A DNA stretch of 64,000 nt from an uncultured Gammaproteobacteria bacterium (GTDB taxonomy: Bacteria > Patescibacteriota > Patescibacteriia > UBA9934). A model generated the notes under the pieces. It was not told the DNA's origin. It did not search any database and saw only the letters and a list, made by a program, of their open reading frames with translations. The translations under genes were made by a program, and so were the position numbers. Positions 2,732 through 61,100 of this stretch are shown here, piece by piece. The stretch is from contig CAZMTL010000002.1 of assembly GCA_964569575.1 (NCBI GenBank), forward strand, positions 19,618-83,617, given 5' to 3'. Positions within the stretch are counted from its first letter, which is position 1; the number at the start of each line of letters is the position of its first letter.

Positions 2732-3136
2732 TTATTTGGTTGCTTTTGAAGTCTTCTTCGTCGAAACTTTCGCCTTTACTGCATCATCTTCCTTTGCAGA
2801 AACACCTTTTGGCGCTACTTCAATCGTAATGTGCGACATTCGCTTTCGAATAGGCGTTGCTCGACCCTGTGCACGAGGCATAACTCGGTGCATTGTAGGA
2901 CCTTCGTCAACGTACGCTGTTTCAACAACGAAATTTGTCGTATCAAGATTAAAGTTATTCTGCGCGTTAGCGATAGCAGAATTAAGAACTTTCAATACAG
3001 GTTTAGCTGCTGCTTTTGCAGAAAACTGAAGCTGGCGTTGCGCGGCAACGATCGGAAGTCCTCGTACTAGATCAACAACAAGTCGAACCTTTCGAGGCGA
3101 CATGTGTATGAATTTTGCTGTAGCTCTTACATTCAT
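2732..3136 (-). CDS. rplV: 50S ribosomal protein L22 (uL22)
   Basis: 134 aa; MNVRATAKFIHMSPRKVRLVVDLVRG...ITIEVAP matches uL22; extra K-rich C-terminal tail. Confidence 0.9.
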   Translation of the reverse strand: MNVRATAKFIHMSPRKVRLVVDLVRGLPIVAAQRQLQFSAKAAAKPVLKVLNSAIANAQNNFNLDTTNFVVETAYVDEGPTMHRVMPRAQGRATPIRKRMSHITIEVAPKGVSAKEDDAVKAKVSTKKTSKATK

Positions 3137-3152
3137 ATAAATATTTCTCTAA

Positions 3153-3440
3153 CTACGCTTTCTTTACAACAGCCACTTCAGCAACCTTTCCACCATGACG
3201 TGAAAAGCGACGAGTTGGCGCAAACTCACCCAACTTGTGACCCACCATGTTTTCCACAATCTTTACCTGCACAAAATCTTTTCCATTGTGCACAGCAAAT
3301 GTGAAACCAACCATTTGTGGAGTAATTGTAGACGATCGCGCCCAAGTCTTAACAACAGTTTTGTCGCCAGCCTTTAGCTTGTCTACTTTTTTCGCCAAAT
3401 TTTCATCGATGTATGGTCCTTTTTTCAAACTTCGAGACAT
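3153..3440 (-). CDS. rpsS: 30S ribosomal protein S19 (uS19)
   Basis: [19 protein letters not shown]...[17 protein letters not shown] is near-universal S19 sequence. Confidence 0.95.
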
Positions 3441-3450
3441 AGACTAGATG

Positions 3451-4278
3451 TTACTTTCTTCGACCTTTTAGAATAAATTTATCTGAAGGCTTTTTCTTTC
3501 GTGTCTTCACACCAAGGGCCTTCTTACCTGTAGGAGTCTTTGGACTCTTCAAACCAATCGCGTTTCGTCCTTCTCCTCCTCCGTGAGGGTGATCAACTGG
3601 GTTCATCGCCTTACCTCGAACGGTTGGGCGAATACTTCGGTGTCGCGTACGACCCGCTTTACCCCATCGAATCAATCGCCAATCAGGATTTGAAACGTTT
3701 CCAATAGTTGCCATGCAGGTCTTTTGAACCATTCGCATTTCTCCAGAAGGAAGACGCACAGTTGCTCGATCTCCTTCTACAGCGAGCAATGTAGCGCTCG
3801 TTCCCGCCCCTCGAACAATCTGCGCTCCAGCTCCAGGCTGAAGTTCGATTGCATAAATAGGCATTCCTGGAGGAATTACTTCTAGAGGGAAACGGTTTCC
3901 TGGATCAGGTTCACCTTTCTTCTTCGAAGCAACAACCACGCTACCAACCTTCATTCCTTGCGCAGCGAGGATATAACGCTTTTCACCGTCAGCGTAAGTA
4001 ACAAGAGCGATACGTGCTCCACGATTTGGATCGTATTCGATCGTTTGAACAGTCGCAGGAATATCCATCTTTTCTCGCTTCCAATCGATTACACGAATAT
4101 GACGCTTCGCTCCACCCCCTCGGTGACGCACAGCAATCTTTCCACCAGACCGTCCAGCCTGTTGCTTCTTGCTTACAATTAATTTTTTGTATCCACTCTT
4201 CGCAGTAACGTCATCGAATGTTTGTACACTCGAATTTCGTCGCCCTGCAGATGTTGGTTTGTAGATTCTGATTCCCAT
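3451..4278 (-). CDS. rplB: 50S ribosomal protein L2 (uL2)
   Basis: 275 aa; ...GGGAKRHIRVIDWKREK...HPHGGGEGR... L2 motifs. Confidence 0.95.
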   Translation of the reverse strand: MGIRIYKPTSAGRRNSSVQTFDDVTAKSGYKKLIVSKKQQAGRSGGKIAVRHRGGGAKRHIRVIDWKREKMDIPATVQTIEYDPNRGARIALVTYADGEKRYILAAQGMKVGSVVVASKKKGEPDPGNRFPLEVIPPGMPIYAIELQPGAGAQIVRGAGTSATLLAVEGDRATVRLPSGEMRMVQKTCMATIGNVSNPDWRLIRWGKAGRTRHRSIRPTVRGKAMNPVDHPHGGGEGRNAIGLKSPKTPTGKKALGVKTRKKKPSDKFILKGRRK

Positions 4279-5330: not shown

Positions 5331-5941
5331 ATATTTCCTTCAGTTGATGTCAGAACTACGAAACCTCCTCGGCTACCTGGAACTGCTCCCTTGATAGCAA
5401 TAATGTTTTCCTCTTTATTAACTTGAACGACTTCCAAATTCTTTACCGTCACACGATCTCCTCCCATGCGACCTCCCATGCGAATTCCTTTAAATACTCG
5501 CTGCGGACCTCCGGCTCCGATAGAACCAGGCATACGCAATTGGTCTTTGTGACCGTGAGTCGCAGGACTTCCGCTAAATCCATGTCGTTTAACAACACCC
5601 TGGAAACCTTTTCCTTTAGATGTTCCAACTACATCGATCGCTTCACCTGTTTCGAATAATGATGCATCAATAACCGCACCACGTTCTAAATTGATTCCTT
5701 CAGGCATTGGGAATTCTCGGGTATGAGAAAATGCACCCAATTCCTTCCAGTCTCCAGCCTGAGCTTTCGCTACATGCTTTTTCGTTCCAAATCCAATAAC
5801 AACCGTATTTACGCCTGCTGGATTTGTTTTCACAGCCGTAACGGTACAAGGCCCCGCCTGTACTAAGGTAACTGGTACAACTGTACCGTCATCCTTAAAT
5901 ACCTGCGTCATTTCAAGTTTCTTTCCTAGGAGGAATTTCAT
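5321..5941 (-). CDS. rplC: 50S ribosomal protein L3 (uL3)
   Basis: MKFLLGKKLEMTQVF...GKGFQGVVKRHGF...; overlaps rplD by 10 nt. Confidence 0.93.
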   Translation of the reverse strand: MKFLLGKKLEMTQVFKDDGTVVPVTLVQAGPCTVTAVKTNPAGVNTVVIGFGTKKHVAKAQAGDWKELGAFSHTREFPMPEGINLERGAVIDASLFETGEAIDVVGTSKGKGFQGVVKRHGFSGSPATHGHKDQLRMPGSIGAGGPQRVFKGIRMGGRMGGDRVTVKNLEVVQVNKEENIIAIKGAVPGSRGGFVVLTSTEGNIWN

Positions 5942-6217
5942 AGAGGAAGATTATCTTCTTATATATCTGGCATCAAAAAAACCAGAAGTCGTAACGCGTT
6001 TTTAAACACGAAACAGCTTCTAGTCCCTAAGCACTCCTTAAGCTTTGGGTTGATTGTTTGAGTAAAAGAGTCCTTTCGCTGTTGCTCAATCTATCGACAA
6101 GAAGGTTTTCCAATGGATCTATCTTCTTAGTAAATCGAGAAACGATTGTTGCGAACTCAGAAAAGTACCTATCAAGATGCTTTTTTGAATTCACAACTCC
6201 TCCTAATTAACTGTGAA

Positions 6218-11582: not shown

Positions 11583-12287
11583 TTAGCGAAGACTTTGATT
11601 CAAAAGCATGGTGCACGAATCACCTACCGTCGCATCACAAATAGCATACGCAGGGGCACTGATAAAGAAGAATACGTTAAATGGGGTAAGAAGCGAAATC
11701 AATACCAAAACGAGCAATAATTGAGGCCCATAAGTCGCAATAAACAACCGAGTTTTCGCATGTTTTGGAGCAGAAAGCAGCACATCTACAATCTTTGATC
11801 CATCAAGCGGGTGAACTGGAAGCAAATTGAATAACATCAAAAATAAATTGATAATGATCAGCAGCACCAAAAACGGCTGCAATAACGTTCCAGCACCAAT
11901 CCCTGCACCTAAAACAACAAATCGAAGTAAAAGCGCAGAAAGTAGAGCTAAAAACAAATTCGAAAATGGGCCCGCAAGCGCAATATGCAGCGCATCAACA
12001 AACGGATTCTTCAAGTTATAAGGATTATAAGGAACTGGCTTTGCCCAACCAAAACCAAATAACAACAAGGGAACAAACCCCCACAAGGTAAGGTGAGCAA
12101 AAGGATTCAACGTCAATCTACCAGCCGCCTCGGCCGTTGAATCACCTTTTAAATGCCCGAGCAACGCATGTGAAAATTCGTGGACAGTTAGCGACAAAAC
12201 AATCACCACTATCCACACGATAGCAACAGCTGGGGATAAACTAAGTAATTCGAAAAACATACTATTCAACTTCGATCTGAGCCCCAA
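11583..12287 (-). CDS. Site-2 protease family (peptidase M50) membrane metalloprotease
   Basis: Polytopic membrane protein with HEFSHAL (HExxH) in a TM helix and downstream NLLPVHPLDG (NxxPxxxLDG) motif typical of M50/S2P. Confidence 0.75.
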   Translation of the reverse strand: MGLRSKLNSMFFELLSLSPAVAIVWIVVIVLSLTVHEFSHALLGHLKGDSTAEAAGRLTLNPFAHLTLWGFVPLLLFGFGWAKPVPYNPYNLKNPFVDALHIALAGPFSNLFLALLSALLLRFVVLGAGIGAGTLLQPFLVLLIIINLFLMLFNLLPVHPLDGSKIVDVLLSAPKHAKTRLFIATYGPQLLLVLVLISLLTPFNVFFFISAPAYAICDATVGDSCTMLLNQSLR

Positions 12288-13554
12288 TCGACCTCAATTT
12301 TCCAACCAAATCCTCGTACCCACGCTCCAAATGATCAACTCCATCAATCTCCGACGTCCCTTCCGCGACCAATGCTGCTGCTACATAAGCAAGTCCTGCA
12401 CGAATATCTGGAACCGTCATCTTCCCCGCCTTCAAAGGCGTTACGCCTCGAATGATAGCCGACTGTTGATAATTTTGATGCTTAAACGGTCCCGACACGC
12501 GGTCCGGCAAATACGTAATTTCGATATTCGCGCCCATCGTATTCAATGTCTCTGTATATTTAAACCGATCTTCATAAACCGTTTCATGAATAACCGACTC
12601 CCCATCTGCCTGCGTCAATACAACCGCCAACGGCTGTTGCCAGTCGGTAGAAAACCCCGGAAATGTATCTGTTTCAACCTCGATCGGTCGATACGAACTC
12701 TTTCCACGGAACCAAATTCCGCTGTCAGTTACTTCAAATTCCGCCCCAAGTTGCCGAACCGCATTCAAAAACGTCACCATATGCCCCTGCCGCGCTCCTT
12801 CACAAAAAATCTCTCCCTTCGTCGCAAGCGCAATACACGCAAAACTAGCTGCCTCCAAACGATCAGGCAGCACCGTATGCTCACATCCATGCAACTTTTC
12901 CACACCAATAATCTCAATTTCGCGCCCAGCCTTCTGGTGAATGATCGCCCCCATCTTCTGCAACATCATCATTAATCCCATGATTTCCGGCTCAATCGCA
13001 GCGTTCCGAATCACCGTCTTCCCCTTCGCCAACACTCCCGCGTACATCAACGTTTCAGTTGCTCCAACTGATGGATACGGCAATTCAAACGAAACACCTT
13101 TCAATCGACCTTCGACCCAAAATTTCCAACCTTCTTCCGACTCCTCAACCTTCGCCCCCATTTTTTGCAACGCCTTCAAGTGATAATCCACCGGTCGAGC
13201 TCCAATCTTGTCCCCGCCAACACGCGCAACATACGCTTCACCCGTGCGATGCAAAAGTGGCGCTACAAGCAAAATAGACAATCGATTTTTTCGACTCTGC
13301 GCCATCGTAGAAGCTGACGCAATTTCCTTCGTCGTCGCCCGCAGCGTATGATCTTCAATCGTCACCTGCGCCCCAACCGTTTCGATCAACTCCTTCGCAA
13401 TATCCGTCTCCTGTTGCAACGGAACATTCCGCAAGGTAACCGTTTCGTCTGTAAGTAAGGTCGCAATAATCATCTTACTCGCCGCATTCTTCGCACCAGC
13501 AATCTTGACCGAACCATTCAAAGCAAGTCCACCAGTAATTTTCATTCGTTCCAT
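12262..13554 (-). CDS. murA: UDP-N-acetylglucosamine 1-carboxyvinyltransferase
   Basis: MERMKITGG...KIAGAKNAASKMIIATLL... EPSP-synthase/MurA fold, about 430 aa. Start placed at the MERM ATG (13554), not the track start at 13629. Confidence 0.85.
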   Translation of the reverse strand: MERMKITGGLALNGSVKIAGAKNAASKMIIATLLTDETVTLRNVPLQQETDIAKELIETVGAQVTIEDHTLRATTKEIASASTMAQSRKNRLSILLVAPLLHRTGEAYVARVGGDKIGARPVDYHLKALQKMGAKVEESEEGWKFWVEGRLKGVSFELPYPSVGATETLMYAGVLAKGKTVIRNAAIEPEIMGLMMMLQKMGAIIHQKAGREIEIIGVEKLHGCEHTVLPDRLEAASFACIALATKGEIFCEGARQGHMVTFLNAVRQLGAEFEVTDSGIWFRGKSSYRPIEVETDTFPGFSTDWQQPLAVVLTQADGESVIHETVYEDRFKYTETLNTMGANIEITYLPDRVSGPFKHQNYQQSAIIRGVTPLKAGKMTVPDIRAGLAYVAAALVAEGTSEIDGVDHLERGYEDLVGKLRSIGAQIEVE

Positions 13555-13659
13555 AATGTTGAGATAAGTGCGTCCATTTTCGCATATTTCAAGAAAAAGA
13601 AGAAGCGCGCCGATTTCTCGACGCGCCACGTAGTCAACCCTCGCGCAGCTCGCGCACGA

Positions 13660-14949
13660 TCACGAGGTGGAATTTTTCACAGAAGGAAGACGCGAACGCC
13701 AATCCTTCTCGAGCGTCTCTCGCGTATGCTTACTTCCCCAATTGATGTTAGGGATGTGTCCGAAATACTCCGGAGCGATGAACCTAAGTGCACGACGACC
13801 CGCGTACAACCTATGATTCTCTTCTGCGGTGGTCATCAGGTCGGAGATATGATCGCCAACCGGAATCACAATCTGCTCCGTGCTCACAGCAGTAAACCAC
13901 CCTTCATCCCGCCTTGGCATCAGAATGCAGCCAGCGGTCTTCACATCCCAGTAACCAGATGCCGTCATGTGGTTTTGAGGCTTCTCTGTGTCTTCAGACC
14001 GGAGAGGATCCGTCCAGAGCACGCCCTTCAAGTATTCACTCAGAGAGCGAGCATCCTCGCGTGTCGCCACGCGAATGCGACCACCCTTTACAGGCATAAC
14101 ACCCATCACCACGTAACGCCAACCAGCACTATCGGTCACCTTTCCCCGGCGCTCAAGCTTGATCAAGCGCGACTCCTGAGTCTTCCTACGACTCCGGACC
14201 CACACGATATAGCAAGCATCCTTTGTCCGAATCACACGACACTCCTGTCGCTCGTGCGCGAAGAAGCGATCCTGCTTCTTTCGTCGTGATCGAAACTCAT
14301 TCCACGACGACTCGTTCATGAACAGTCGAATCGCAGGCTCGTCAGTCGCCCCACCCACGACACGTCGATCGCCTTCGCTCAACTCCGCAGCGACCCAGAG
14401 ATGCTTCAGGTCAGCCTCGAAGACACGCTCATTCGCGAGCTCGTTGACACGCTGAATCGCGTTCGAAATCAGCAGATGCCGTTCGATCATCTCCATCACC
14501 ATCAACTGAAGAGCGATGGTGAGATTACGACGCGCCTCATAGTAAAGACGTCGTTCGCGAATGCGCGGATCACGCTTACTGGGCTTCCTTGGCTCACGAC
14601 GTACCCACTCGATCTGGCGACGCGGATCAGTCGTACTCGACACTTCTTCGAGCGTTTCGAGTCGCCCGGAATACGGAGCAAAGTACATGTTTGCCATGGT
14701 GCGCACATGATCTTCCGCCGCATTCAATGCCTCGCAGAATCGATCGAAAAACTCCTCAACTCCCAGCTCGGTCGAAACACCATGAGCGGACTTGTGATAC
14801 CTCACGAACGCTGCATGCAACGCCGCCTTGGAGTCGTAACCGATTTCGATCAGTCGAAAGTATTCTTTCGTCATGCGCTTCAGCGCCTGTGCCTCTGGAG
14901 CGAATTGCCGAAACGGCATCGCGTCAATCTGCGGACTGAAGATTTTCAA
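13660..14949 (-). CDS. Hypothetical Arg-rich protein encoded in a GC-rich (foreign-looking) segment
   Basis: 429-aa ORF; no motif I can assign. Local sequence is visibly more GC-rich than neighbours and several other frames are also open here (shadow ORFs 13726-14289+, 14401-15054+). Strand and frame assignment therefore only moderately secure. Confidence 0.45.
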   Translation of the reverse strand: MKIFSPQIDAMPFRQFAPEAQALKRMTKEYFRLIEIGYDSKAALHAAFVRYHKSAHGVSTELGVEEFFDRFCEALNAAEDHVRTMANMYFAPYSGRLETLEEVSSTTDPRRQIEWVRREPRKPSKRDPRIRERRLYYEARRNLTIALQLMVMEMIERHLLISNAIQRVNELANERVFEADLKHLWVAAELSEGDRRVVGGATDEPAIRLFMNESSWNEFRSRRKKQDRFFAHERQECRVIRTKDACYIVWVRSRRKTQESRLIKLERRGKVTDSAGWRYVVMGVMPVKGGRIRVATREDARSLSEYLKGVLWTDPLRSEDTEKPQNHMTASGYWDVKTAGCILMPRRDEGWFTAVSTEQIVIPVGDHISDLMTTAEENHRLYAGRRALRFIAPEYFGHIPNINWGSKHTRETLEKDWRSRLPSVKNSTS

Positions 14950-15042
14950 GAATCACCTCTAACTGAATTGTTTTCACCAACACGACCCCTTACTCTTACA
15001 AAAATCCCAACAAAAATCAACCTCAATCACCTCCCTAAAACA

Positions 15043-15069
15043 AAAAACAGCTAATGAAAGCTGTTTTTT
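15043..15069 (-). terminator. Rho-independent terminator downstream of ndk (bidirectional-looking)
   Basis: aaaaaacagc-taatgaa-agctgtttttt: 6-bp GC-containing stem flanked by A-run and T-run, 14 nt after the ndk stop. Confidence 0.55.
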
Positions 15070-15082
15070 GCACCACGAAGGA

Positions 15083-15550
15083 CTAAACTCCTTCTCCAAA
15101 GTGATACTTATCAGTCAATTTTTCGTATGTAAACAATTCGTTTTCTGAGAAGAATCGGTTGATCTCTGTTTCTGCCGCTTCCGGAGAATCTGACGCGTGA
15201 ACCATATTTGATGGTACATTCATCGAAAGATCTGCTCGGATCGTTCCAGCGTCCGCTTGTCGAGGATTTGTTGAACCAACGATTTTTCGAATTTCATCAA
15301 TCACCTCCAACCCTTCGAACACAGCCGCTACTACCGGAGTTTGCATCATGAATTTCTTCAAATCTCCAAAAAATGGCTTATCTTTCAAGTGTCCGTAGTG
15401 TTCAACCAATGTCTGTTCGTCTAGGTTGATCATCTTAAGCGCCACCATCTTCAAGCCTTTTCGCTCGAATCGGCACAATACTTCACCAACTAATTCGCGC
15501 TGAAGTGCATCTGGTTTAATAAGAACGAGGGATCGTTGAATGTTCGACAT
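15083..15550 (-). CDS. ndk: Nucleoside diphosphate kinase
   Basis: 155 aa; LVLIKPDA...; NMVHASDS (NxxHxSD active-site His motif). Confidence 0.92.
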   Translation of the reverse strand: MSNIQRSLVLIKPDALQRELVGEVLCRFERKGLKMVALKMINLDEQTLVEHYGHLKDKPFFGDLKKFMMQTPVVAAVFEGLEVIDEIRKIVGSTNPRQADAGTIRADLSMNVPSNMVHASDSPEAAETEINRFFSENELFTYEKLTDKYHFGEGV

Positions 15551-33344: not shown

Positions 33345-33421
33345 TGGTGCACCCGGCACGACTTGAACGTACGACCCTCAGCTCCGCAAGCTGATGCTCT
33401 ATCCAACTGAGCTACGGGTGC
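33345..33421 (-). tRNA. tRNA-Arg, anticodon GCG (CCA encoded)
   Basis: Hand-folded: GCACCCG/CGGGTGC acceptor; D-arm GCTC-AGTTGGATA-GAGC (A20); anticodon stem TCAGC/GCTGA; loop TTGCGGA; T-arm GTACG-TTCAAGT-CGTGC; A73; CCA. Confidence 0.75.
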
Positions 33422-33554
33422 AAAATATGAAAGAACTCCAACCGACGTACATCTTAACGGACATATGTCATCCGATCAAGTCCCACTAACCAGTACAGCG
33501 AAACGGGTGACGGGAATCGTGAGCAAAAAAAGAGGCCAACTTCAAACGTTTCGC

Positions 33555-34082
33555 TTAGAGTTTATACAGTCTTCGCATCATGTCCGTCAAGCTCTCTTCG
33601 CTACGTTCAATGTTCTCGATACAGTACGGCAACAACGCCTCTCGAACAAGAATCGGGTCAGCGTCTTCAAGCGGAATCGTCAGCATTGGCAACCAACCTT
33701 TTTGAAAAGAAACGTACAGCCATTTAATCTCGGGAGGGGCATAAATGACCGAAAAATCCTTCACTTCCTCGAACGAATAAAATTTATCATCAACCACAAT
33801 CCCTAAATCGGTAATATGCACCTGAATACGCGCTGGTTTTCGCAAATCGAGTGCCAGAAAAATCACCGCAATCATCAACACAATAATGGCAAACATAAAG
33901 TTCGCCGTCCACAAAGAATACACAATTAAAAGCGCCGTAATAATCCCTGCAACAATATACCAACGCTTCGAACGCAGATGCGGTAAAAATTCCCAAGTCT
34001 CCCAAGAATACGCCGCCAAACCAGCATCCATCACTTCTTCCTGTGGAGAATTATTTCCCTGATTTTGGTCATTTTTTTCCAT
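33555..34082 (-). CDS. Hypothetical membrane protein (2 TM)
   Basis: Start placed at MEKNDQNQ ATG (34082); the longer track ORF would run through the tRNA-Ser gene. No recognisable motifs. Confidence 0.45.
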   Translation of the reverse strand: MEKNDQNQGNNSPQEEVMDAGLAAYSWETWEFLPHLRSKRWYIVAGIITALLIVYSLWTANFMFAIIVLMIAVIFLALDLRKPARIQVHITDLGIVVDDKFYSFEEVKDFSVIYAPPEIKWLYVSFQKGWLPMLTIPLEDADPILVREALLPYCIENIERSEESLTDMMRRLYKL

Positions 34083-34156
34083 ACTTCTTCCAGTATACCA
34101 AACAACTCTTGATTCCAGGAACAATTTCGGGTACTCTATGCACACCTCAATACTGA

Positions 34157-34246
<90 letters not shown>

Positions 34247-34372
34247 AAAACATCCAACGCAAGTTGGATGTTTTTGTTTTTAGAAGAGAACAAGTCCTTG
34301 CACTACGATTTTCGCGCAAAACAAAAAAACGACCACTCAAGGTCGTTTTTTTGTGTTTACAATCACGTGAAG

Positions 34373-34846
34373 TTATTCGCAATCTTCTTCGTTAATCACC
34401 ACAAGGTAACTCTCGTCACTATCAGCGACGGCGTACGAATACTTCAACTCGATACCAGCATCAAACAACACAGGTGCGTCTGGATTTGCGCACACAGTTG
34501 GAAGAAGGAATTCTTTCAAGAACTCGTTCGAAAACCCTGTTCGATCAAGATCAGCGGCGATTTCGTATTCGTATCGAACCGCATCACCTTCCGCAACCAA
34601 ATCAACAAGCGTCGTAGAAGAATCAACGGCCATTGGCAAATCAAGATTTTCCTTCGCCTCCGAAACGAAACTCTGGATCATTTCATCCTGAACCTTTCCC
34701 GAATTTCCACCAGCAAGCACAGCTACAACCGCCACAATAACAGCAAGAACCAACAAACCTCCCACAACAGCAGCACCCATCATCGACGATTTCTTTTGAT
34801 TAGGCATCTGCTGACCCGGAACCGACTGTGTATTCATATCACTCAT
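34373..34846 (-). CDS. Hypothetical membrane-anchored protein
   Basis: Start at MSDMNTQ; single TM (AAVVGGLLVLAVIVAVVAVLAG) then acidic soluble domain; no assignable motif. Confidence 0.45.
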   Translation of the reverse strand: MSDMNTQSVPGQQMPNQKKSSMMGAAVVGGLLVLAVIVAVVAVLAGGNSGKVQDEMIQSFVSEAKENLDLPMAVDSSTTLVDLVAEGDAVRYEYEIAADLDRTGFSNEFLKEFLLPTVCANPDAPVLFDAGIELKYSYAVADSDESYLVVINEEDCE

Positions 34847-34952
34847 ATTCGAAAGGTAATAATTTATATTGAAGAAGTATACCAAGAAAAGACTATAAAA
34901 TAAAAGCTCTTACAAGAAAAGAAAAAGCCTCACCGAAGTGAGACGTTTTCCA

Positions 34953-35042
34953 TGGCGGAGAGGAGAGGATTCGAACCTCCGAGGGATTTGACTCCCTGCC
35001 ACGTTAGCAATGTGGTGCCTTCGGCCACTCGGCCACCTCTCC
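34953..35042 (-). tRNA. tRNA-Ser, anticodon GCT (long variable arm; CCA encoded)
   Basis: Reverse complement GGAGAGGTGGCCGAGTGGCCGAAGGCACCACATTGCTAACGTGG...GGAGGTTCGAATCCTCTCCTCTCCGCCA; loop TTGCTAA. Confidence 0.75.
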
Positions 35043-47028: not shown

Positions 47029-49860
47029 TTAAGGGGTTCCTGTAGAGCCTGGCGTTGGCGTTGACGGCGTCCCAGAAGTTGCCATACCCGGAGCCGATCT
47101 AATATCTCGAGCTACCAAATTAGCATAATCCTTCAAACGTTCACGCTCTTCGCTCTTCCGAATAACAACCGCTCCTTTTCGAGCAGCCACCGCATCATCT
47201 GCTCGAAGTACACGCATAACATTCATAACAGCAGCTTGAATATCTTTTAATTCAGTAGCATTTGCACGCTGTGCGCGCGAATGCAAATCACTAAGTAATT
47301 TTGAAGCATTCTGAGCAATCACCTTTCCGGCATCAGTATGATTACCGCCACCCGTCAGCGAAGGCGTAGACAACATCTTCGCATCAAATTGGGCAACAGC
47401 GGCAGGAGCTGTAGAAATAACTTGTTGCAACAAAATTGGATTAGCAACAGAACCCGTCGCAGAATTAACCTCCACGTCGTTCAAATTACCTGTTGATAAA
47501 TATTTAGCTTGCTTATATTTACTCTGTTCAGCTAGCGAAAGAGTGTTGGAAGCCTGAATAGCATCGATCTTCGCGACAAGAGCATCTCGAACATCAGTCG
47601 CCATATCACTCAAATCCGCTCCACTCACAGCCGCATCAACCGTAGCCTGAACAACACGCCGAGCCTGTTCTTCTGCTTTAGGGTCTGTAGCAGAGCCAGC
47701 AAAATCAAGTGCCGCGATTGGATAAACGCCTGCTTTGACTTCTTCGTCGGTGACCGGCCTCAAAACAGCCTGCTTAGCTCCAATAGCCTCGCTCATTTTT
47801 TGAATATTATTACTTACGGCAGGATTATAATTCTTATTCTGACTAAGCTTAGACAAGTAATTTTGGACGTCTTTATTAACGCCGCCAACGCCAGTATTTA
47901 ATTGATCCAGTGCAGTAGACGCGGTTCGTTTACCACCATTCTCCTGGTCATTAAAGTAACCCATGACTCGCTCATCCAAGGCATCAAGAATCTTTTGATT
48001 AGGCACTGTCTTATATTTCTTTGTCTGAGGATCCATAACGTATTCACCCGTCTTCGGATCAACATAAAATTCCTGCAACGATTCCGCCGAAATCATGCTT
48101 GTCTTGAAACGTTCATCTGAAATAACCTTTTTAACATCTTTTTCATCAAGCAAATGCAAATTTTTAACCTTTGCTTTATACAAATTATCGCTGAAAGACT
48201 TGTCTTCCGCTCCAAAAACCTCTTCCTTCGCATCAGCAACCTTAAGAGCCTGTTTCATTGCAAGATCATAACGCTCTTGTCCTCCAGGTTCACCATACTG
48301 CTTCTGCAATCGTTCCTTCAATCGCTTCTGCTCAAACTTATTTTGCATTAAATTTGAAGCAATAAACATTGAAAACGCTTGGTCACTTTCGTTAAGCTTA
48401 CTAATATCAAAACCAGGCGTCATCATGCGCTCATAATCCATCGCGCGCTGCGTATCGCTTCGAGATTCATATCGCTTCTTCGCCGAATCACGAACAGCAT
48501 TTTCTTGTAACTCAAGTCGATTTTCAGCCATTCCTGCTACATTGGATGTAGCACGCCCAACGGCAGCCAAGGGAGCGAAGGAACTTTGAGCTTGTCGCTC
48601 TCCAAATCTAACAGCATTCTGAGCGTAATCTTTGAAAACTGCAGGAGCGCCTGTACGCCGGTACCCTGCATACGCACCCTTCCCTGCATAATTTGCACCC
48701 GTCGCCAATGTTCGACGCGCAAGCATAGTCGCCATTCCTCCATCCGCCGAAATTGCTTTCGCAGCAAACCCTCCAACCGAAGAAGCTTGCTGACTTGCTG
48801 TCTGAAAGCCAACCATAATCAAAGCAACTCCAACAATCACTCCCATAATCTGATCAAGTGAAAATACTTCAACCAAAAAGTCTGATTCAAAATAATTTCC
48901 ACTTGCGTCTAACTGAGGATCAAACCCAGCGTCTGTGGCAATCGATCCACTAGACGCAACTGCTAGCCCAAGCCAAAGGAAAAAAAGCATGATTGGACCA
49001 AACGCAATCGCGCCAGTCAATCGCTTCCACCAATCTCCGTAGACTCCCTGCAACCCCCCAAGCGTCGCACCCACGCCTTGCGCAAAAAACGCCAACGGTG
49101 AAATAACAATCAAAATCCAAAGTACAACAATGCGATACATCAACGCTGCCGTTAACAAAATAAGCGTAGACGCAACCAGCGCAAGCAGCCAAACCATCGC
49201 AATGGTTGTACCAAGCAATTTAAACGCCTCGATTCCAGAACCAACCGTACCAGCAACTAAACCAGCGTCTTCATTCAATTCGTAAAATCGGCTAAGATTA
49301 AAAAATTCGGCAAAATTCCCTGCCCCTACTTCCGAAATCGCATTAGCAAATGTCACCATGATCACCTGACCAATATCAATCATGAACAAAGTGATCGTCT
49401 TTGAGAAATTCATCGCAATCACAGCGATAAATAATTTCGGCAATTGCTGCTTCCAATCAACTCGACCGGCACCAACCATTGTTTGAACCGCAATCACGAG
49501 CAAAATTACAATCACGAACATGTTCATCAAGTCTCGCACCAACTGCCAACCAACCAACACAACCTGACTACTTCCAAATGCATCATACTGAATCAACGTC
49601 AGCATGATAGAGATAAGCAAAACAATTAATTGCCCAAGCATCCAGGCGATCACGTTAAAGATTCCAGCAATCAAACCCATCAATGTATTTCGAGCAGTAG
49701 CGGTAATCGCTCCAAGTGTATCGCTTTGAGCCAAAACAACATCAGCGCCCCCGAAAACTCCCCCAACAATAACCGCACTCAAAATAAAAAAACTTAAAAA
49801 CAATCTGTGTTTGAACAGAAAAACGCTTGCCTGCGAAAACCATGTACGCAACCGGTTCAT
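47029..49860 (-). CDS. VirB6/TrbL-like polytopic membrane protein with about 550-aa hydrophilic C-terminal extension
   Basis: Start at MNRLRTWF (49860): signal-like segment, then at least 7 hydrophobic helices over about 400 aa, then long soluble region rich in A/K/Q. Confidence 0.45.
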   Translation of the reverse strand: MNRLRTWFSQASVFLFKHRLFLSFFILSAVIVGGVFGGADVVLAQSDTLGAITATARNTLMGLIAGIFNVIAWMLGQLIVLLISIMLTLIQYDAFGSSQVVLVGWQLVRDLMNMFVIVILLVIAVQTMVGAGRVDWKQQLPKLFIAVIAMNFSKTITLFMIDIGQVIMVTFANAISEVGAGNFAEFFNLSRFYELNEDAGLVAGTVGSGIEAFKLLGTTIAMVWLLALVASTLILLTAALMYRIVVLWILIVISPLAFFAQGVGATLGGLQGVYGDWWKRLTGAIAFGPIMLFFLWLGLAVASSGSIATDAGFDPQLDASGNYFESDFLVEVFSLDQIMGVIVGVALIMVGFQTASQQASSVGGFAAKAISADGGMATMLARRTLATGANYAGKGAYAGYRRTGAPAVFKDYAQNAVRFGERQAQSSFAPLAAVGRATSNVAGMAENRLELQENAVRDSAKKRYESRSDTQRAMDYERMMTPGFDISKLNESDQAFSMFIASNLMQNKFEQKRLKERLQKQYGEPGGQERYDLAMKQALKVADAKEEVFGAEDKSFSDNLYKAKVKNLHLLDEKDVKKVISDERFKTSMISAESLQEFYVDPKTGEYVMDPQTKKYKTVPNQKILDALDERVMGYFNDQENGGKRTASTALDQLNTGVGGVNKDVQNYLSKLSQNKNYNPAVSNNIQKMSEAIGAKQAVLRPVTDEEVKAGVYPIAALDFAGSATDPKAEEQARRVVQATVDAAVSGADLSDMATDVRDALVAKIDAIQASNTLSLAEQSKYKQAKYLSTGNLNDVEVNSATGSVANPILLQQVISTAPAAVAQFDAKMLSTPSLTGGGNHTDAGKVIAQNASKLLSDLHSRAQRANATELKDIQAAVMNVMRVLRADDAVAARKGAVVIRKSEERERLKDYANLVARDIRSAPGMATSGTPSTPTPGSTGTP

Positions 49861-49993
49861 AGATAGGTACAGTATAACAAATTTTCGCTCACTCTTGTGA
49901 AAGTTTTGCACATGCAACCGAAAGAAAAATCCCCACTTCTTCCAAACGCCGTTTGCGTGCAGAAAAAGTAGGGATCAGTTGAGCGAACACGAC

Positions 49994-52450
49994 TCAGGGA
50001 GCCGTCAGTACACCGAAGACAGGGACGTGTGACTCGTAGCCGTCGACCGTTCCTTCGTTCGGAACCGTCGAGAACATGACGTCGCCCGGATTGGTACCAC
50101 TCGACACAGGCACGCCATCGAACGGCGCACCAGCATGGCGGTACACACGCGAAGCCCACGAAGGAAGTGCGTCGTCTTCGTGAAACACGAAGCCGAGACG
50201 ATCACACACGTACCCAGGTCGGAACAGGTACGCGTTGAATTCGACCGAGTCTTCCTGCAGTAGAAGCGAGAGGTGCAGTCCCGAGGGCTCGACGCCGTAA
50301 CACTGAGAAATGGCAACCAAGCGGTCACCACCCCCAAACGCCACCACGCCACCCGCCTGCCCCGAACAGCCCGAACCGTACGTGGGATTGGTGCACAAAT
50401 CGGGCGGATAGAGCGTGATCACGCGTCCATCCGTCACCCACTGCGCACCAGGCGAAGCAGAGCCGTAGCGATGTTCGAAATCGCGATACACCTCATGCAC
50501 GCCATTACCATCGATATCAGCGACCACATTCGGCCACTCGCGGTAGTACCGCTGAAGCGTCAGTCGACCGTCTTCGTCCACCGCGCCGTCGCAGTCGTTG
50601 TTCGCCAAGTCCCACAGCTCGACGTGTCCCGGGTGAATTGCGGCATTACTGTCCACGCAGTCCCCGGTACACAAGCCGTATCCGTCGCCATCCACATCCG
50701 CACACCCCGCGTCAGTGTCGGTGTCCGAATCAGAATCCGCATCACTGTCTGCATCCGCGTCAGAATCGGCATCCGCATCACTGTCGGAGTCTGCGTCAGA
50801 ATCCGAATCGGCATCGCTATCCGCATCTGCGTCCGTGTCAGCATCCCCTTCTGCACAACCGAGTTCGGAATGATCCGAAGCTCCGTTGCAATTGAGGTCA
50901 CCATCCACGTAATCACACATGCTCCACCCCAGTCCCGCGAGCGGCGCACCTGGATACGAGTATTCGTACCCGTCGTCGCAATCACCCTGACAGGTGGTGA
51001 AGCCATCGAAGTCCGAGTCCGGACACAAATCGCCCGTATCGGCGTCTGCATCAGAATCGGCATCCGAGTCAGCATCGCTGTCCGCATCTGCGTCGGAATC
51101 TGCGTCGCTATCCGAATCCGCATCCGCGTCGGCATCCGACTCACCCAGCAAGGAAACCCACTCGTCCGCAGGTCCTCCACAGGTGTACACGTCCTGCTCG
51201 GTCAAGCAAAAGTAATCCGTGGCGCAATCGCCCACACGCCCCTGAACCGCCGTGATGGCACCGTCCAGAACGTGCAGAATGTCGCGATCACCAAAACCGA
51301 GCAACAAGTACGTCGACCAGTTCGCGATCGGCATCGCAACGCCGTCCGAAACCAGGTAGACGGTAGGCGTATGTTCTTCGCGCATCACCGTTCCGTCCCG
51401 AAATTCCGCCAAAGCGAAGTCCGAAACGTACTGCGAATACGAAGCGATCTGCGCCGGCACCGCCAGTTCGGACACCGAATTGATCGACATCCCCCAGCTC
51501 GCCAACACCTCACGCCAGTATTCGTGCGGAACACGCAGACGACGCTTGGCACCACCCTCACCGAGCAGCAACCACACCTCGCCTGCGTCGTGCACGGCAT
51601 CCACCGACCAATCCCCATTAACCATGCCACCCGTTTGGTAGCAGGCGAATTCCTGAGGAGAGATCACTTCCACGTTCCGGAAGTCGAATTGACCACCCCA
51701 GAACACCGACTCCGACACGAACGGTCGTAGCACACCTTCCTGCAACCAATACACCGTGCTCGAAGAAGGCTGCTTCACCAACATCCCGTTTGGATGCCAG
51801 CGAGGCGTGCTCAACCGCGAACGGTACAACCGCCCACCCGGCAGTGCACACACCATGTCACTCACAGGGTAACCAGCTTCGATTCCCGTTAGAACATCGG
51901 ACGCATACACGTCCAAGCCCTCGATCGAAGTTCCGTACACCGCATCCTGCCGTGCGTTCCCCTGGTGACGCCCCATGTGGACATGATCACCCGTCGACAT
52001 CCCCGTCGTTCCTTCGTATCCGATCAACGAACCGGCCGCCACCTGCGTACCGTCCGCCACGAACACGTCAGAGAGATGCCCAAGCAACACGTACGTACCG
52101 TCCCCCATCTCGATGTTCACATGAATGCCGAAATTGGTATTCGGCGAATCCTCGTGAACGAACGCCGTGCCCTCGACTGGCGAGTACACCAGATCACGCC
52201 GGTCGTTCGGCGTGTCGAGATCGACGTCGTACCGCGTGCTGTTCCCGCTATGCGAGAAATCACCACCCGGACCCTGAACACACATGCTGGTGTAGCCGTA
52301 GTCGAACGGCATATCCACCATCACCACATCCTGCCCACCACCAACGCCACCGGTCTGATCCCAATCCTCCAAGCCACCCGGCATACGCCAGCAGCCCGAG
52401 TTCAGAATCAGAATCAACAGCAGCATCAGCACCTGAAGATGCTTTCGCAT
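49994..52450 (-). CDS. Secreted (possibly lipoprotein) peptidase M23 (LytM-type) with long Asp/Ser/Ala acidic repeats and Cys-rich CxxDCDD...NDCDG repeats; encoded in GC-rich DNA
   Basis: MRKHLQVLMLLLILILNSGC signal; M23 motifs ...GHLSDVFVADGTQVAAGSLIGYEGTTGMSTGDHVHMG (HxH); runs of DADSDSDADSDADAD; GDCVDSNAAIHPGHVELWDLANNDCDGAVDE repeat. Confidence 0.65.
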   Translation of the reverse strand: MRKHLQVLMLLLILILNSGCWRMPGGLEDWDQTGGVGGGQDVVMVDMPFDYGYTSMCVQGPGGDFSHSGNSTRYDVDLDTPNDRRDLVYSPVEGTAFVHEDSPNTNFGIHVNIEMGDGTYVLLGHLSDVFVADGTQVAAGSLIGYEGTTGMSTGDHVHMGRHQGNARQDAVYGTSIEGLDVYASDVLTGIEAGYPVSDMVCALPGGRLYRSRLSTPRWHPNGMLVKQPSSSTVYWLQEGVLRPFVSESVFWGGQFDFRNVEVISPQEFACYQTGGMVNGDWSVDAVHDAGEVWLLLGEGGAKRRLRVPHEYWREVLASWGMSINSVSELAVPAQIASYSQYVSDFALAEFRDGTVMREEHTPTVYLVSDGVAMPIANWSTYLLLGFGDRDILHVLDGAITAVQGRVGDCATDYFCLTEQDVYTCGGPADEWVSLLGESDADADADSDSDADSDADADSDADSDADSDADADTGDLCPDSDFDGFTTCQGDCDDGYEYSYPGAPLAGLGWSMCDYVDGDLNCNGASDHSELGCAEGDADTDADADSDADSDSDADSDSDADADSDADADSDADSDSDTDTDAGCADVDGDGYGLCTGDCVDSNAAIHPGHVELWDLANNDCDGAVDEDGRLTLQRYYREWPNVVADIDGNGVHEVYRDFEHRYGSASPGAQWVTDGRVITLYPPDLCTNPTYGSGCSGQAGGVVAFGGGDRLVAISQCYGVEPSGLHLSLLLQEDSVEFNAYLFRPGYVCDRLGFVFHEDDALPSWASRVYRHAGAPFDGVPVSSGTNPGDVMFSTVPNEGTVDGYESHVPVFGVLTAP

Positions 52451-57174: not shown

Positions 57175-57203
57175 TTGACAAAACCGCTAAAATAAGCTAT
57201 GTT
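57175..57203 (+). promoter_or_regulatory. Putative sigma70 promoter (TTGACA-N17-TATGTT) for the lipoprotein gene, followed by a GNRA-tetraloop leader hairpin (57220-57237)
   Basis: Read directly; hairpin gacactc-gcaa-gagtgtc then gcttcttgctctttggg; AGGAG SD 8 nt before ATG at 57307. Confidence 0.4.
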
Positions 57204-57306
57204 TGAAGCAAAGGAGAGAGACACTCGCAAGAGTGTCGCTTCTTGCTCTTTGGGCAATGTCGCCCGTACACCACCGCGCCGCAGGGCGCCCAGATAGGAG
57301 AACCCC

Positions 57307-57978
57307 ATGCGCAACAGCATGACCTTCATCGCGTTCGCCCTCTCCCTCGTCGCCTGCAAGGCCGGCAAGGACACGGGCATCGACACCTCCAACCCGGAAG
57401 AGGTCGCGTTCATCGAGTACAACGTCACGATCGGCAACCAGCCGGTCAACATGTTCGTCTTCAATGCCGACGGACAGTCGGTCGCCAGCACCAACCGCGA
57501 AGTCCAGGTCGAACCGGGACCCTACCGGCTCCTGGTCGGCGACGGCAGCGCGTGGCACCCGAACGGCGAGTGGCCGCTGTGCCTGTACACCGACGGCAAC
57601 TACTGGGGCTGTCCGGAGACCGAGACGCTCGTCCTCGAGGACGGCGACGTGTTCCAGAGCTCCTGCGACATGTCCCTGGTCTTCTGGGGAACGTACACGC
57701 TCACCAGCCAAAGCTGCAACGAGTCTGCGTGCAACGAACCTCGCACTGAGACCAATGTCTACGTCGAGGTGCAGCCGAACCTCACGATTCTGCTCGAAAG
57801 CGGAGACGGAGACAACATCGCGAACGAGTTCAACGGAACGCTCGAAGTACAAGGAGCAAGCCTGTCGATCAACACCGATGCAACCCTTGAAGTCAACGAG
57901 TTCAACGTCGACTACATCGACTTCATCCGGTACCAGCCTAGCGGAAGCTGGAGCAACATCACCATGTCGCGCCAGTAA
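57307..57978 (+). CDS. Hypothetical lipoprotein (GC-rich gene)
   Basis: MRNSMTFIAFALSLVACK: canonical lipobox L-V-A-C; Cys-containing Asn/Thr/Glu-rich mature part; antisense ORFs 57187-58026 and 57162-57494 are shadow frames. Confidence 0.6.
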   Translation: MRNSMTFIAFALSLVACKAGKDTGIDTSNPEEVAFIEYNVTIGNQPVNMFVFNADGQSVASTNREVQVEPGPYRLLVGDGSAWHPNGEWPLCLYTDGNYWGCPETETLVLEDGDVFQSSCDMSLVFWGTYTLTSQSCNESACNEPRTETNVYVEVQPNLTILLESGDGDNIANEFNGTLEVQGASLSINTDATLEVNEFNVDYIDFIRYQPSGSWSNITMSRQ

Positions 57979-58094
57979 CAACTTTGCACGACGGCATTCA
58001 AGACCCCCTAGTTCCACCTTCCGCACACGGCAGAAGGCGCAGCGAACAAGGGGGTCTCGCTATTTCAAAAAATTTAATTAAACTACGATAAATA

Positions 58095-58123: not shown

Positions 58124-61100
58124 TTATCGTGGCGAAACAAGAATCACTCCATCAAACTCTATCCAAGGGTCAATGCCAGGCTCTAAAACATCCGGAAAAG
58201 CTTGATAATCACACTGTACGCGTTCCGTTGGATCAGTACCTAGCCCGGCTGTACTGTTCGTATCCACCGTCCCCTCAAAACATCCATCCTCTCCATTACA
58301 CGTTCCTGCACACCATCCCCAGTTATCACGAACGTGAACTTTTGGCTTAAATGCACATTGTGCAGTATCGCCTTCACCTACACGACAAGGCGTGTTTGAG
58401 TAGTCAGCGTTACACACCGACGTGCCAGGAAGAGTTACAGCGTTACAAGTATACGTATGCGTATACGATAGATAATTCTCACTACATGATTCGCTTGTTA
58501 ATCCCCATTCGGAGTTAAGTGAACACAGCGTTGTGGATTCGTCACCTTGCACCAATCCACGGTGATTTCGGAAGAAGTTGTCTTCTGAAGGTGACCCACT
58601 TTCATCACCATCACCCCAATCCACAATCACACGTCGAATCGGCAACTGATCAGGCAACGCGAAGGCAAAGAAGTTTGCTGTTACTCGCAAGAATCCGCCC
58701 TGTCCGATAACCGTTCCAGAATTTTGACCATTTACGGTAATTGTATCTTCCTGACCTTCTTCACACAAATCCCCGAAACATCGATCCGTATTCAATCCTC
58801 GAACGCGCGGAGGACCACCTTGAGCCGCACGCACATCCCACAGCGCTCGATCAGCCTCTGCCAATTCACCTCCAAGAGAATCCTCGACAGTGTACTCAGG
58901 AGCATACTCAGTAGATTGCCAGTTCGCTGCCGGCGTAATCAAATCTTGAGTCCAAGTAAACCAATCCTGAGTGTCCGGAAGGTTCAAACTAGCAAACATC
59001 TGCGTCGCACGGGCATAGAAGTTGTTTGCTGGATTTGCCTCGACAGTCCAGAAATCAACCAGGTCATCGAAAGCTACATCTTCGTAATCATAACCGAAAT
59101 CCATCAACGATGAGATTTCAGGATCTGAAGGAACATGGCCGTCTACTCCATAAAACAGCGCACCACTCTCCATTTCTTCGTATGGGTACACACAGTTTAC
59201 TGTCGTAGGGGCCGCAAGATCATTCAACCAAGCACTTTCTTCAGAAGAACTTTGGAAACTTGTTGAAGCAGTACTAGAAGTTGTATCAAAATTAATATTC
59301 GAATCGTACACAGGTGCATTTGGCAATGGAGTTCCTGGAGCAAACTCATTGTCTGCCTTATTCGCGATACACGCACCGATTCTTAACGGAGCTTTTTCAA
59401 GTAAAGTATCCGAAGCATTAATAGCGGAAGGCGAATACTTCGCGGCACCTGCAATATTATCTGCTCCAAAAGAATAATTCATTCGAGGATTATTCGATGC
59501 AATTACGCCGCCTTGGAAAAGCTTATTTGTAAACGCATATCCCTCCCCAGAAGACGAAGACACTTGCAATAAATCTTTACAGGCAGGATAAACATCAAGA
59601 TTGATATAAGCATGTCGATAACGTCGGTTTGCTGTTATTGCAACATCTTCGTTTGTACGGAAATCATAAATGCTATCCAACTGATCCGCCGCAACACCTG
59701 GAAGCACACAATCCTGATAAGCATTCAACACAGCACTAAACGCTTGAATCTGCTGCGCACCTCCATCATTGCGATCATTCAAAGGCTGACTAGTAGCTGC
59801 CCATGTATAAACCTCGTTGCCAAAGTTACTAGTACGAACACCACCATTAATAGCAGATTCGGCACCTTGTAGACCGTCTATCGCGGCAGCCACAGCATCA
59901 TCTGAGCTTGGCGCAAGACATTCACGCTGCTCCAGATTTTCATTCGCCTCGGATGCATGGAAAGAATTTTTCGGAATACAGGCGTATGGACAATCGTTAT
60001 CAGAACCATCTCCGGCACACATACCTGCGGCACCACCAAAATTCGCATTTGGTGCTGGCTGACCCACCACGGCGAAATATCCTTCAGGACAAGCTGCATT
60101 CTGCCAACAACCATCAGCATTAGAAGTAAGTCTTTGATAACTATTATTGACGTTGACTCCTTGAACTCCTGGAGCTTCTGCACAGGCAACGCCTGGCTGA
60201 TTCGCATTATTCGACAACTGAATATCACTCGTCCTCAAATTCGCGAACAGGCGAACGTCTGAACACACGAATGTGTCTTCGAAGAATCCGGCTGTTTTGT
60301 ATTTTGCGTACAAATCAGTTGTTCCCTGCAATTGATCTACTGGGTACCAAGTAATACATGCTCCAACATCTGTTGTTCCATCAATATTAATTGACGTATC
60401 ACGCTCCAAACAGAATCCTTCCATTCCATAGAGGGTATCGAGTCGGTTAATTGGCTGACAAACGGCTCCAGAATCAACATCTCCACAGTCAGTGTCTTCG
60501 GTACAAATCGAACCAGCAAGCGCTCCACCGCTACACACTCCAGAATACGGAGTTGTTGAATCGTATGGATCTGTATCCAAATCTAAGTACGCAAATTGAT
60601 TACTCGAATCCGAAATCTTCACATACGAACACATACAGTCTTCACCCGGCGCGCAGAAATTCGCATTTTCGTAGCCGGAAACTGTCGAGAACGGCGAAAC
60701 AGAAGATTGATTTAGACCACCGCCAACAATTGGATCACCAACTTCCGACGACGACTTAGGCACGCCATCTTTTCCAATCCATTGTGTAACAAGCGAAGAA
60801 TCAAACGGACTTGTCGCTTCTGGATATGCGCGACAAATATGAACTTCACCGCTATCTTCCGCGATTTGCTCACCATCTACTCCCACAACACAACTATCGC
60901 GGTAGCAAGTTCCTTCCGTAGTCGCAACCGACTGGAAACACACGCCCGCTCCACACGATCCATTAATACACGTTCCCGCCAAACTACAATCTCCCACATC
61001 GTTATAACAAGTTCCGGCAACAAACACCTGACCAGCCGAACAATCTGCTTGGCTGTCGGCACCCGTTGATCCAACTGAATAATATTCACCAATAATACAA

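Follow-up and report, generated by a model that had tools for sequence, protein, structure and literature searches.

A gene-sized segment between ndk and murA in the genome of an uncultured bacterium of the ultra-small Patescibacteria raises the question whether it is a foreign insertion or a resident gene, and which function it encodes. The window analyzed here is a stretch of 64,000 nucleotides (positions 19,618 to 83,617 of contig CAZMTL010000002.1, GenBank assembly GCA_964569575.1), and the segment, designated X, is an open reading frame (ORF) of 429 codons on the minus strand of this window (positions 13660-14949), which begins at TTG and ends at TGA. A preliminary description of this DNA had noted a basic, Arg-rich and compositionally atypical product, and had considered the segment to be inserted and likely foreign. 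The analysis shows that X is an old, fast-evolving and vertically inherited gene that is restricted to a Candidatus Uhrbacteria-type (Patescibacteria) lineage, in which it belongs to an unannotated protein family. Moreover, its product is probably a strongly diverged pyrophosphokinase that resembles the synthetases of the RelA/SpoT-homologue (RSH) superfamily, to which the enzymes that form the bacterial stress signal (p)ppGpp belong.

The structural evidence for this assignment comes from an AlphaFold2 model built on an alignment of 51 family members with a mean column identity of 21%. The model is a single globule with a predicted local distance difference test (pLDDT) score of 94 and a predicted template modelling (pTM) score of 0.91. 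According to DSSP, residues 1-175 (positions 14425-14949, minus strand) form an all-helical N-terminal region with helices at residues 16-35, 40-51, 64-89, 109-117, 130-155, and 158-175, and with an Arg/Lys-rich stretch at residues 108-135 (nucleotides 14545-14628). The remainder of the protein (residues 176-429; positions 13663-14424, minus strand) is predicted to be the catalytic alpha/beta region, with a RelA/SpoT-synthetase-like fold of the nucleotidyltransferase type. Its core follows the order strand-helix-strand-helix-strand-strand-strand-helix, in which the sequence motifs described below are found at the expected places, and extra strands are present at residues 177-241. When the model was compared with the PDB using Foldseek, the top 36 matches were all small alarmone synthetases (SAS), including 2BE3, RelP (6EX0/6EWZ), and SAS1 (5DEC/5DED/5F2V), at a probability of approximately 1.0 and E-values from 3e-3. 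No credible match was obtained in a library of viral folds. The model thus has the alpha/beta arrangement of RSH synthetase (SYNTH) domains, with RSH synthetases as its nearest structural neighbours, and we consider an RSH-type fold and homology of X to be highly probable.

Conservation within the family points to the same active site. Residues K256, D273, and E358 are invariant in all 51 members, R254, K264, G276, Y/F333, and H379 are each kept in at least 86% of them, and the near-invariant positions are R254, K264, R275, G340, H379, C237, R238, W312, and D156. The putative ATP triphosphate-binding strand and helix of the donor site (R254-R-K256-TQE-S260-RLI-K264-LE-R267; positions 14149-14190, minus strand) was assigned on basis of this conservation and of the spacing in FaRel2. 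In this element, R254 is found in 46/51 members, S260 in 32/51, K264 in 47/51 (with Arg in the other 4), and R267 in 37/51, and the resulting RxKxxxSxxxK(xxR) motif has the spacing of R64, K66, S70, K74, and R77 of FaRel2. In the donor site of FaRel2 these five residues are on the triphosphate and D90 is on Mg2+, and the adenine is contacted by G93, R95, E145, and Q147 (PMC11782079). The putative Mg2+-binding Asp and the putative adenine-contacting Gly and Arg of X are located in D273-SA-G276-W-R278 (positions 14116-14133, minus strand), which contains a DxxGxR motif and opens the strand at residues 275-285 of the model. Besides the invariant D273, this segment displays G276 in 44/51 members and Arg or Lys at position 278 in 36/51; D273, G276, and R278 correspond to D90, G93, and R95 of FaRel2 and to D72, G75, and R77 of RelQ.

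Further towards the C-terminus, family conservation identified a putative acceptor-site "G-loop" aromatic residue accompanied by basic residues (Y333-WDV-K337-TA-G340-C; positions 13927-13953, minus strand), with Tyr or Phe at position 333 in 50 of the 51 members, K337 in 43, G340 in 49, and Arg at position 341 in 31. Like Y116 of RelQ and Y128 of FaRel2, Y333 precedes the fourth core strand, an equivalence that is taken from the order of the elements and a non-significant alignment. The putative catalytic Glu is part of E358-Q359-I360 in the fifth core strand (positions 13870-13878, minus strand), where Gln is found at +1 in 32/51 members and at +2 in 21/51, and some orthologues read EHQITT, which is near the canonical EIQIRT. 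In the order of the donor-site residues, E358 matches E145 of FaRel2. The catalytic strand is followed by a conserved His..Tyr helix that resembles the H..YK of RSH proteins (H379-RL-Y382-A; positions 13801-13815, minus strand), with H379 in 49/51 members, Y382 in 37/51, and Arg or Lys at position 383 in 40/51. The best hhalign alignment of the family with a RelQ profile (RelQ sequence verified against PDB 5DED), which is not significant (E 0.16), aligns R254, K256, S260, and K264 with R46, K48, S52, and K56 of RelQ, and D273, G276, R278, and E358 with D72, G75, R77, and E139. A regular expression that combines the motifs was matched by 119 of 120 RelQ proteins, by 20 of the 51 X family members including the window copy, and by none of approximately 1,300 other background ORFs.

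Several observations weigh against the RSH assignment, and these concern the structure, the sequence, and the distribution of the gene. The structural scores are moderate, with TM scores normalized to the target of 0.4-0.48. At the sequence level, the RSH synthetase family PF04607 was matched neither by the window protein (E<=10) nor by the 51 members (E<=1), no RSH protein was recovered when PDB sequences were searched with the family profile, and the hhalign comparison with RelQ reached a probability of 0.4%, using a RelQ profile that was shallow (Neff 2.2), since the homologues listed for its 19-sequence alignment were all of >=67% identity; hhalign against RelQ alone gave no significance either. 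Moreover, the window copy has Ala275 where 49/51 members have Arg, and Glu-Arg at positions 156-157 in place of a near-invariant Asp-Pro. In most members the Gln that follows the catalytic Glu is displaced by one position, the His..Tyr spacing is one residue off (Tyr at +3 in X vs +4 in RelQ, H155..Y159-K160), and both RelQ and FaRel2 have a longer loop at the position of K264-D273. Finally, X is absent from 16 related loci on a murA tree, and hence dispensable, and it diverges faster than ComEC, which would suit a conflict gene too.

General sequence searches were equally silent. The window protein had no match in Pfam, NCBIfam, PADLOC (0 families), or PHROGs (0), in agreement with the preliminary description, in which X could not be placed in any family by eye; a match to an HNH-helper family at an E-value of 0.05 was dismissed as noise. 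Pfam and NCBIfam searches with all 51 family members gave scattered single-member noise only. The sole PDB sequence matched by the family profile was a designed repeat protein, which is a spurious match, and a search of the PDB sequences with the single X protein yielded noise matches at an E-value of approximately 1.7 only. One candidate relative (P0028; 3,867 residues, 35 matching stretches) was rejected as a tandem-repeat artefact that is unrelated to X. In the literature on RSH proteins or (p)ppGpp in the Candidate Phyla Radiation (CPR) and Uhrbacteria, nothing relevant was found.

The extent of the family became apparent by an exhaustive HMMER search, which uncovered 60 cluster representatives; a word-indexed protein search returned the query alone, or 2 proteins when the family alignment was used, and was too insensitive for this family. 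In public records the relatives are labelled "hypothetical protein [Candidatus Uhrbacteria bacterium]", and the best matches of the neighbouring murA (58-72% identity) are from metagenome-assembled genomes (MAGs) of Candidatus Uhrbacteria or Patescibacteria. Several of the MAG records that were used here (including L002, L003, L005, L006, and L009) are titled "uncultured Gammaproteobacteria bacterium" despite murA, ndk, and rpsL genes and a gene order of the Uhrbacteria/Patescibacteria type, and are probably mislabelled submissions. In at least 12 further loci of the Uhrbacteria type (L002-L006, L008, L009, L012, L026, L082, L085, and L086), the same slot between ndk and murA is occupied by distant homologues of X (22-46% identity), and the genes are ordered as comEC, a metallo-beta-lactamase-fold gene, ndk, X, sometimes a gene for an FMN reductase, murA, a gene for an M50 peptidase, and rpsL. 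All 13 contexts of X that were examined represent this slot, including that of the weakest match (P0059, E 6e-4), and X is directly adjacent to ndk in 11 of the X-bearing loci.

On a neighbour-joining tree of murA, X is present in 8/8 loci of the window's clade, in L006, L008, and L012, and in the basal L026. In the relatives that lack X, ndk and murA are separated by a gap of 86-88 bp or by unrelated genes, and tblastn detected no remnants of X in those that were checked. The slot is therefore a variable spot in the Uhrbacteria-type lineage, and the simplest history of X is that the ancestor carried the gene and that it was lost repeatedly. The three genome pairs that are closest by murA (79-86% identity) are also closest by X (41-64% identity), from which we conclude that X is vertically inherited; the gene diverges faster than its beta-lactamase-fold neighbour as well. 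The unrelated genes in slots without X were found at 1432-2592 of L016, at 2751-4241 and 4389-5912 of L022, and at 5202-5909 of L033, and encode, among others, proteins without a Pfam match and a beta-propeller protein of the phytase-like or PQQ type.

The composition of X is indeed atypical. Its G+C content (GC) is 0.545 compared to 0.459 for the window, which corresponds to the 96.5th percentile among equal-sized windows, and its G+C content at third codon positions (GC3) is 0.607 compared to 0.34-0.50 in the neighbouring genes, ranking second among the 55 ORFs of the window at approximately 2.5 standard deviations above the mean. The protein is basic, with 12.4% Arg, 4.9% Lys, and an isoelectric point (pI) of 9.6, and Arg codons by themselves are insufficient to explain the compositional shift, which is real. 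However, the flanking housekeeping genes have a lower GC3 than X in 13/13 loci (the window and the 12 loci listed above), with a mean excess of X of +0.17 and a range of +0.06 to +0.36. As the excess is found in every orthologue, it is a property of the gene family and not a mark of recent transfer. The window displays a GC3 gradient from approximately 0.31-0.35 in translation genes via 0.40-0.50 in ordinary genes to values above 0.6 in X and one M23-peptidase gene, and a codon gradient linked to expression, in which X would be among the weakly expressed genes, offers a plausible ordinary explanation; the excess could reflect such a gradient or family-specific selection. More generally, these data hold a methodological warning, as a pronounced local deviation in GC and GC3 is here a stable trait of a vertically inherited family rather than evidence of horizontal transfer.

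These data bear directly on the proposal that X is a foreign or mobile cassette that was recently acquired between ndk and murA. The clear outlier status of its GC and GC3 is in line with such an event, as are the short ndk-murA gap of some relatives and the variable content of the slot in others, exemplified by the phytase-like beta-propeller protein. Nevertheless, recent insertion is contradicted by the syntenic murA-X-ndk order throughout the window's clade and in the basal relative, by the agreement of the recent nodes of the X tree with murA, and by the GC3 excess over its own neighbours in every orthologue. Moreover, no flanking direct repeats or att-like sites were detected at the borders of X, which are also devoid of an integrase or tRNA gene (the nearest tRNA gene is at approximately 18 kb), tblastn searches in phage and plasmid collections revealed no relatives of X, and in the 13 contexts the family occurred nowhere outside the slot. 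Recent acquisition thus retains a very slim probability, and the suggestions of a mobile-element or replication protein found no support. Even less credible, to the point of being practically dismissed, is the explanation that the segment is non-coding or that its true gene is an alternative-frame or antisense ORF. The opposite strand does contain long ORFs of 187 and 217 codons (positions 13726-14289 and 14401-15054, plus strand), in accordance with the preliminary description, but these lie in the exact mirror frame of X. This frame stays open because X uses only 1 TTA, CTA, or TCA codon, the three that correspond to stop codons in the mirror frame, among its 58 Leu and Ser codons, which makes the antisense ORFs a trivial by-product of codon choice. 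In the orthologues the mirror frame contains 0-15 stops and is therefore not conserved, and the antisense products, used as queries, retrieved nothing beyond the locus itself and faint traces of the conservation of the sense product. For the sense product, 60 clusters of homologues were found and the structural model is of high confidence. Rfam searches of the window and five orthologous loci, at gathering and E-value thresholds, detected no RNA element either within X or in the region preceding it.

With respect to the chemistry, two other readings have to be weighed against an RSH-type pyrophosphokinase. X could be a Pol-beta-type nucleotidyltransferase that transfers a nucleoside monophosphate, like OAS, CD-NTases, MenT, and the CCA-adding enzymes, a reading that benefits from the lack of significance of the RSH homology at the sequence level. 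Pol-beta nucleotidyltransferases typically carry a G[SG]...[DE]x[DE] metal-binding motif with an acidic diad on the second core strand. Compared to OAS1, CD-NTases, and CCA-adding enzymes, X lacks this diad on the second strand, where the single invariant D273 is followed by Ser or Arg, Ala or Arg, and Gly without a second acidic residue. In addition, X has an invariant Glu and the basic strand and helix of the RSH type, with the RxKxxxSxxxK triphosphate-binding element in the RSH donor-site position, and a Pol-beta activity is accordingly regarded as improbable. The main rival is a CapRel-like fused toxin-sensor, or a defence or addiction protein of the toxic small alarmone synthetase (toxSAS) type, in which the RSH-like domain would pyrophosphorylate the 3'-CCA ends of tRNA or deplete ATP via (pp)pApp, and the N-terminal helical domain would auto-inhibit until a trigger such as phage infection. 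It owes this position to the fast divergence of X relative to murA, the patchy retention with repeated loss, the high pI together with the Arg/Lys-rich stretch, and the CapRel-like fusion of an extra domain to the catalytic core; moreover, the host-atypical GC3-rich codons could hold expression low. The defence role that the preliminary description had listed among its candidates thereby survives as a minority possibility, because the fold is of the RelA/SpoT type and some such synthetases are toxins, but PADLOC gave it no support.

Comparison with the known toxic enzymes argues against this role. X shares the fused extra domain, the basic character, and the rapid divergence with CapRel(SJ46) and the tRNA-pyrophosphorylating toxSAS FaRel2 and PhRel2 (7ZTB), but its extra domain is N-terminal and all-helical, whereas that of CapRel is a C-terminal pseudo-zinc-finger antitoxin domain (pZFD), of which no counterpart was found in X. 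Unlike these systems, X resides at one fixed housekeeping locus, shows no sign of mobility, and was found neither in the phage nor in the plasmid collections searched; in the window it is monocistronic, with ndk and murA on either side. Across the family there is no constant partner gene of the antitoxin type, as the MazG gene described below accompanies X in one locus and the FMN reductase gene in 7. The structural match with the (pp)pApp synthetase toxins Tas1 and FaRel and with exported SAS (6OX6, 8VX3) is weaker than that with RelQ and RelP, which are also structurally closer to X than CapRel is. Neither a neighbouring immunity gene nor a small alarmone hydrolase (SAH) gene is conserved across the X family, and, judged by eye, its N-terminus bears no likeness to a secretion or polymorphic-toxin domain. 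Finally, the basic residues beside the acceptor Tyr follow the pattern of alarmone synthetases and not the reduced patch of FaRel2. Taken together, a toxin or defence protein appears unlikely, although clearly less so than a Pol-beta-type enzyme.

The RSH-type pyrophosphokinase reading finds its best structural neighbours in RelQ/SAS1 and RelP/SAS2 (PF04607; 5DEC, 5DED, 6FGK, 6EWZ, 2BE3). X has the same order of secondary-structure elements, and the RxKxxxSxxxK element, the DxxGxR motif, the putative G-loop aromatic residue, and the putative catalytic Glu follow each other in the same order. X differs from RelQ and RelP by the absence of significant sequence similarity, by a length that is twice their total of approximately 200 residues, by a helical N-terminal region of approximately 175 residues, and by its restriction to Uhrbacteria; the family's C237, R238, R275, W312, and D156 fall outside the set of RSH donor-site residues that was compared. 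Fold and chemistry would be of a known kind, whereas the family is new in its architecture, in being missed by the HMM (hidden Markov model) libraries tested, and in its confinement to one CPR lineage.

It is rather likely, as judged from the conserved motifs and the fold, that X is an active pyrophosphokinase. In the mechanism that we propose, the C-terminal alpha/beta domain would bind ATP-Mg2+ in the donor site, with R254, K256, S260, K264, and R267 holding the ATP triphosphate, G276 and R278 contacting the adenine, and D273 and E358 holding the metal and catalyzing the reaction. The beta,gamma-pyrophosphate would then be moved to the 3'-OH of a purine acceptor that is stacked on Y333. The preferred acceptor would be a free nucleotide, leading to an alarmone of the (p)ppGpp or (p)ppApp type, and the N-terminal helical region of approximately 175 residues may act as a regulatory or sensor module. 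The leaning towards a free nucleotide is based on ndk as the constant neighbour, on the MazG gene that follows X in L026, on the conserved basic residues K337 and R341 that flank Y333, and on the lack of a conserved antitoxin-like partner. Still, a nucleotide acceptor is only a fair way towards an even chance, and tRNA or another macromolecule is a less likely acceptor again. With similar reserve, and somewhat more tentatively than the nucleotide acceptor, X may be regarded as the first representative of a family of RSH-like alarmone synthetases that is confined to one lineage of Patescibacteria, tied to ndk, and equipped with a new regulatory N-terminal input.

Two genes share the slot with X in some of the loci. 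In L026 only, an ORF for a MazG-type nucleotide pyrophosphohydrolase (PF03819, E 7.6e-12; positions 5521-5979) is located between the X homologue and murA, and it may cooperate functionally with X if the product is a nucleotide. In 7 X-bearing loci a gene for an NADPH-dependent FMN reductase (PF03358) is located 3' of X (7384-7938 of L082, 6382-6933 of L085, 3469-4029 of L003, and also in L005, L002, L009, and L086). This gene abuts murA with a gap of 3-4 nucleotides, is absent from the window, and was not seen in any of the loci without X. The ndk genes of L011, L012, L020, and L021 are 41-46% identical to that of the window, compared to 70-81% in relatives at a similar murA distance, and could represent a different ndk lineage or a replacement.

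The local signals are those of a genuine gene. A Shine-Dalgarno sequence (GAGGTG, positions 14954-14959, minus strand) was read 4 nucleotides 5' of the TTG start, and the N-terminus MKIFSPQ agrees with that of the closest homologue, P0002 (MKIFYPDQ); the start is thus backed by both, and the minus-strand frame that the preliminary description had chosen is correct, as the homologue family, the fold, and the non-conserved mirror frame confirm. The upstream neighbour ndk, encoding nucleoside diphosphate kinase (PF00334, E 1.5e-49; positions 15083-15550, minus strand), is followed by a terminator hairpin with a perfect 12-bp stem and a run of T's, which was found as an inverted repeat (positions 15041-15070, minus strand; RNAfold -16.5 kcal/mol) and bounds the X leader (14950-15040). 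Between this hairpin and the start of X lies an A/C-rich tract, so that the flanks, including the start of murA, are as had been described before. A terminator scan detected a G+C-rich, intrinsic-terminator-like hairpin with a T-rich tail (positions 13594-13627, minus strand; RNAfold -18.8 kcal/mol) directly 3' of the X stop and 5' of the murA ATG (13554). Because of these two hairpins X looks like a separate transcription unit. The leader also contains a second Shine-Dalgarno-like sequence (GGGAGGTG, minus strand) followed by an ORF of 23-26 codons, the TGA of which overlaps the start of X (TTGA); this coupled upstream ORF is not kept in orthologues and is probably fortuitous. The downstream neighbour murA encodes a member of the UDP-GlcNAc enolpyruvyl transferase family (PF00275, E 1e-72; positions 12262-13554, minus strand). 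The mechanically called murA ORF (12262-13629, minus strand) opens at a GTG at 13629, but translation probably begins with the ATG at 13554 (MERMKITGG...), since the Pfam match and relatives fit this start and the GTG form crosses the X terminator hairpin.

Elsewhere in the window, an ORF of 818 codons (positions 49994-52450, minus strand) is a second compositional outlier, with the highest GC of the window (0.593) and a GC3 of 0.669. Its product has a high content of Asp (13%) and Gly (12%), contains almost no Lys, carries a Peptidase_M23 domain near the N-terminus, and has no sequence kinship to X as far as HMM search shows. Another GC-rich block (0.594; positions 57187-58081) contains ORFs that overlap on both strands, and its 279-codon minus-strand ORF had no match in Pfam; the same holds for the adjacent ORF of 1,946 codons (58124-63964) and for that of 962 codons (47029-49917). 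The tRNA genes of the window include a group of three (Arg-GCG, Ser-TGA, and Ser-GCT) on alternating strands at positions 33345-35042.

Bacteria of the Candidate Phyla Radiation are hard to cultivate, and their regulation is little studied. If X is an active pyrophosphokinase, this group would have a concrete, testable candidate enzyme for chemistry involving nucleotide second messengers or toxins. Surveys of RSH proteins such as that in PMC7229694 depend on sequence HMMs, and the X family matches no Pfam, NCBIfam, PHROG, or PADLOC model tested, so that an active enzyme would extend the RSH superfamily into sequence space that is reached by structure prediction alone. If, moreover, the alarmone-synthetase reading is true, these bacteria with reduced genomes would make signals of the (p)ppGpp or (p)ppApp type with an enzyme that lies beyond the Pfam and NCBIfam models.

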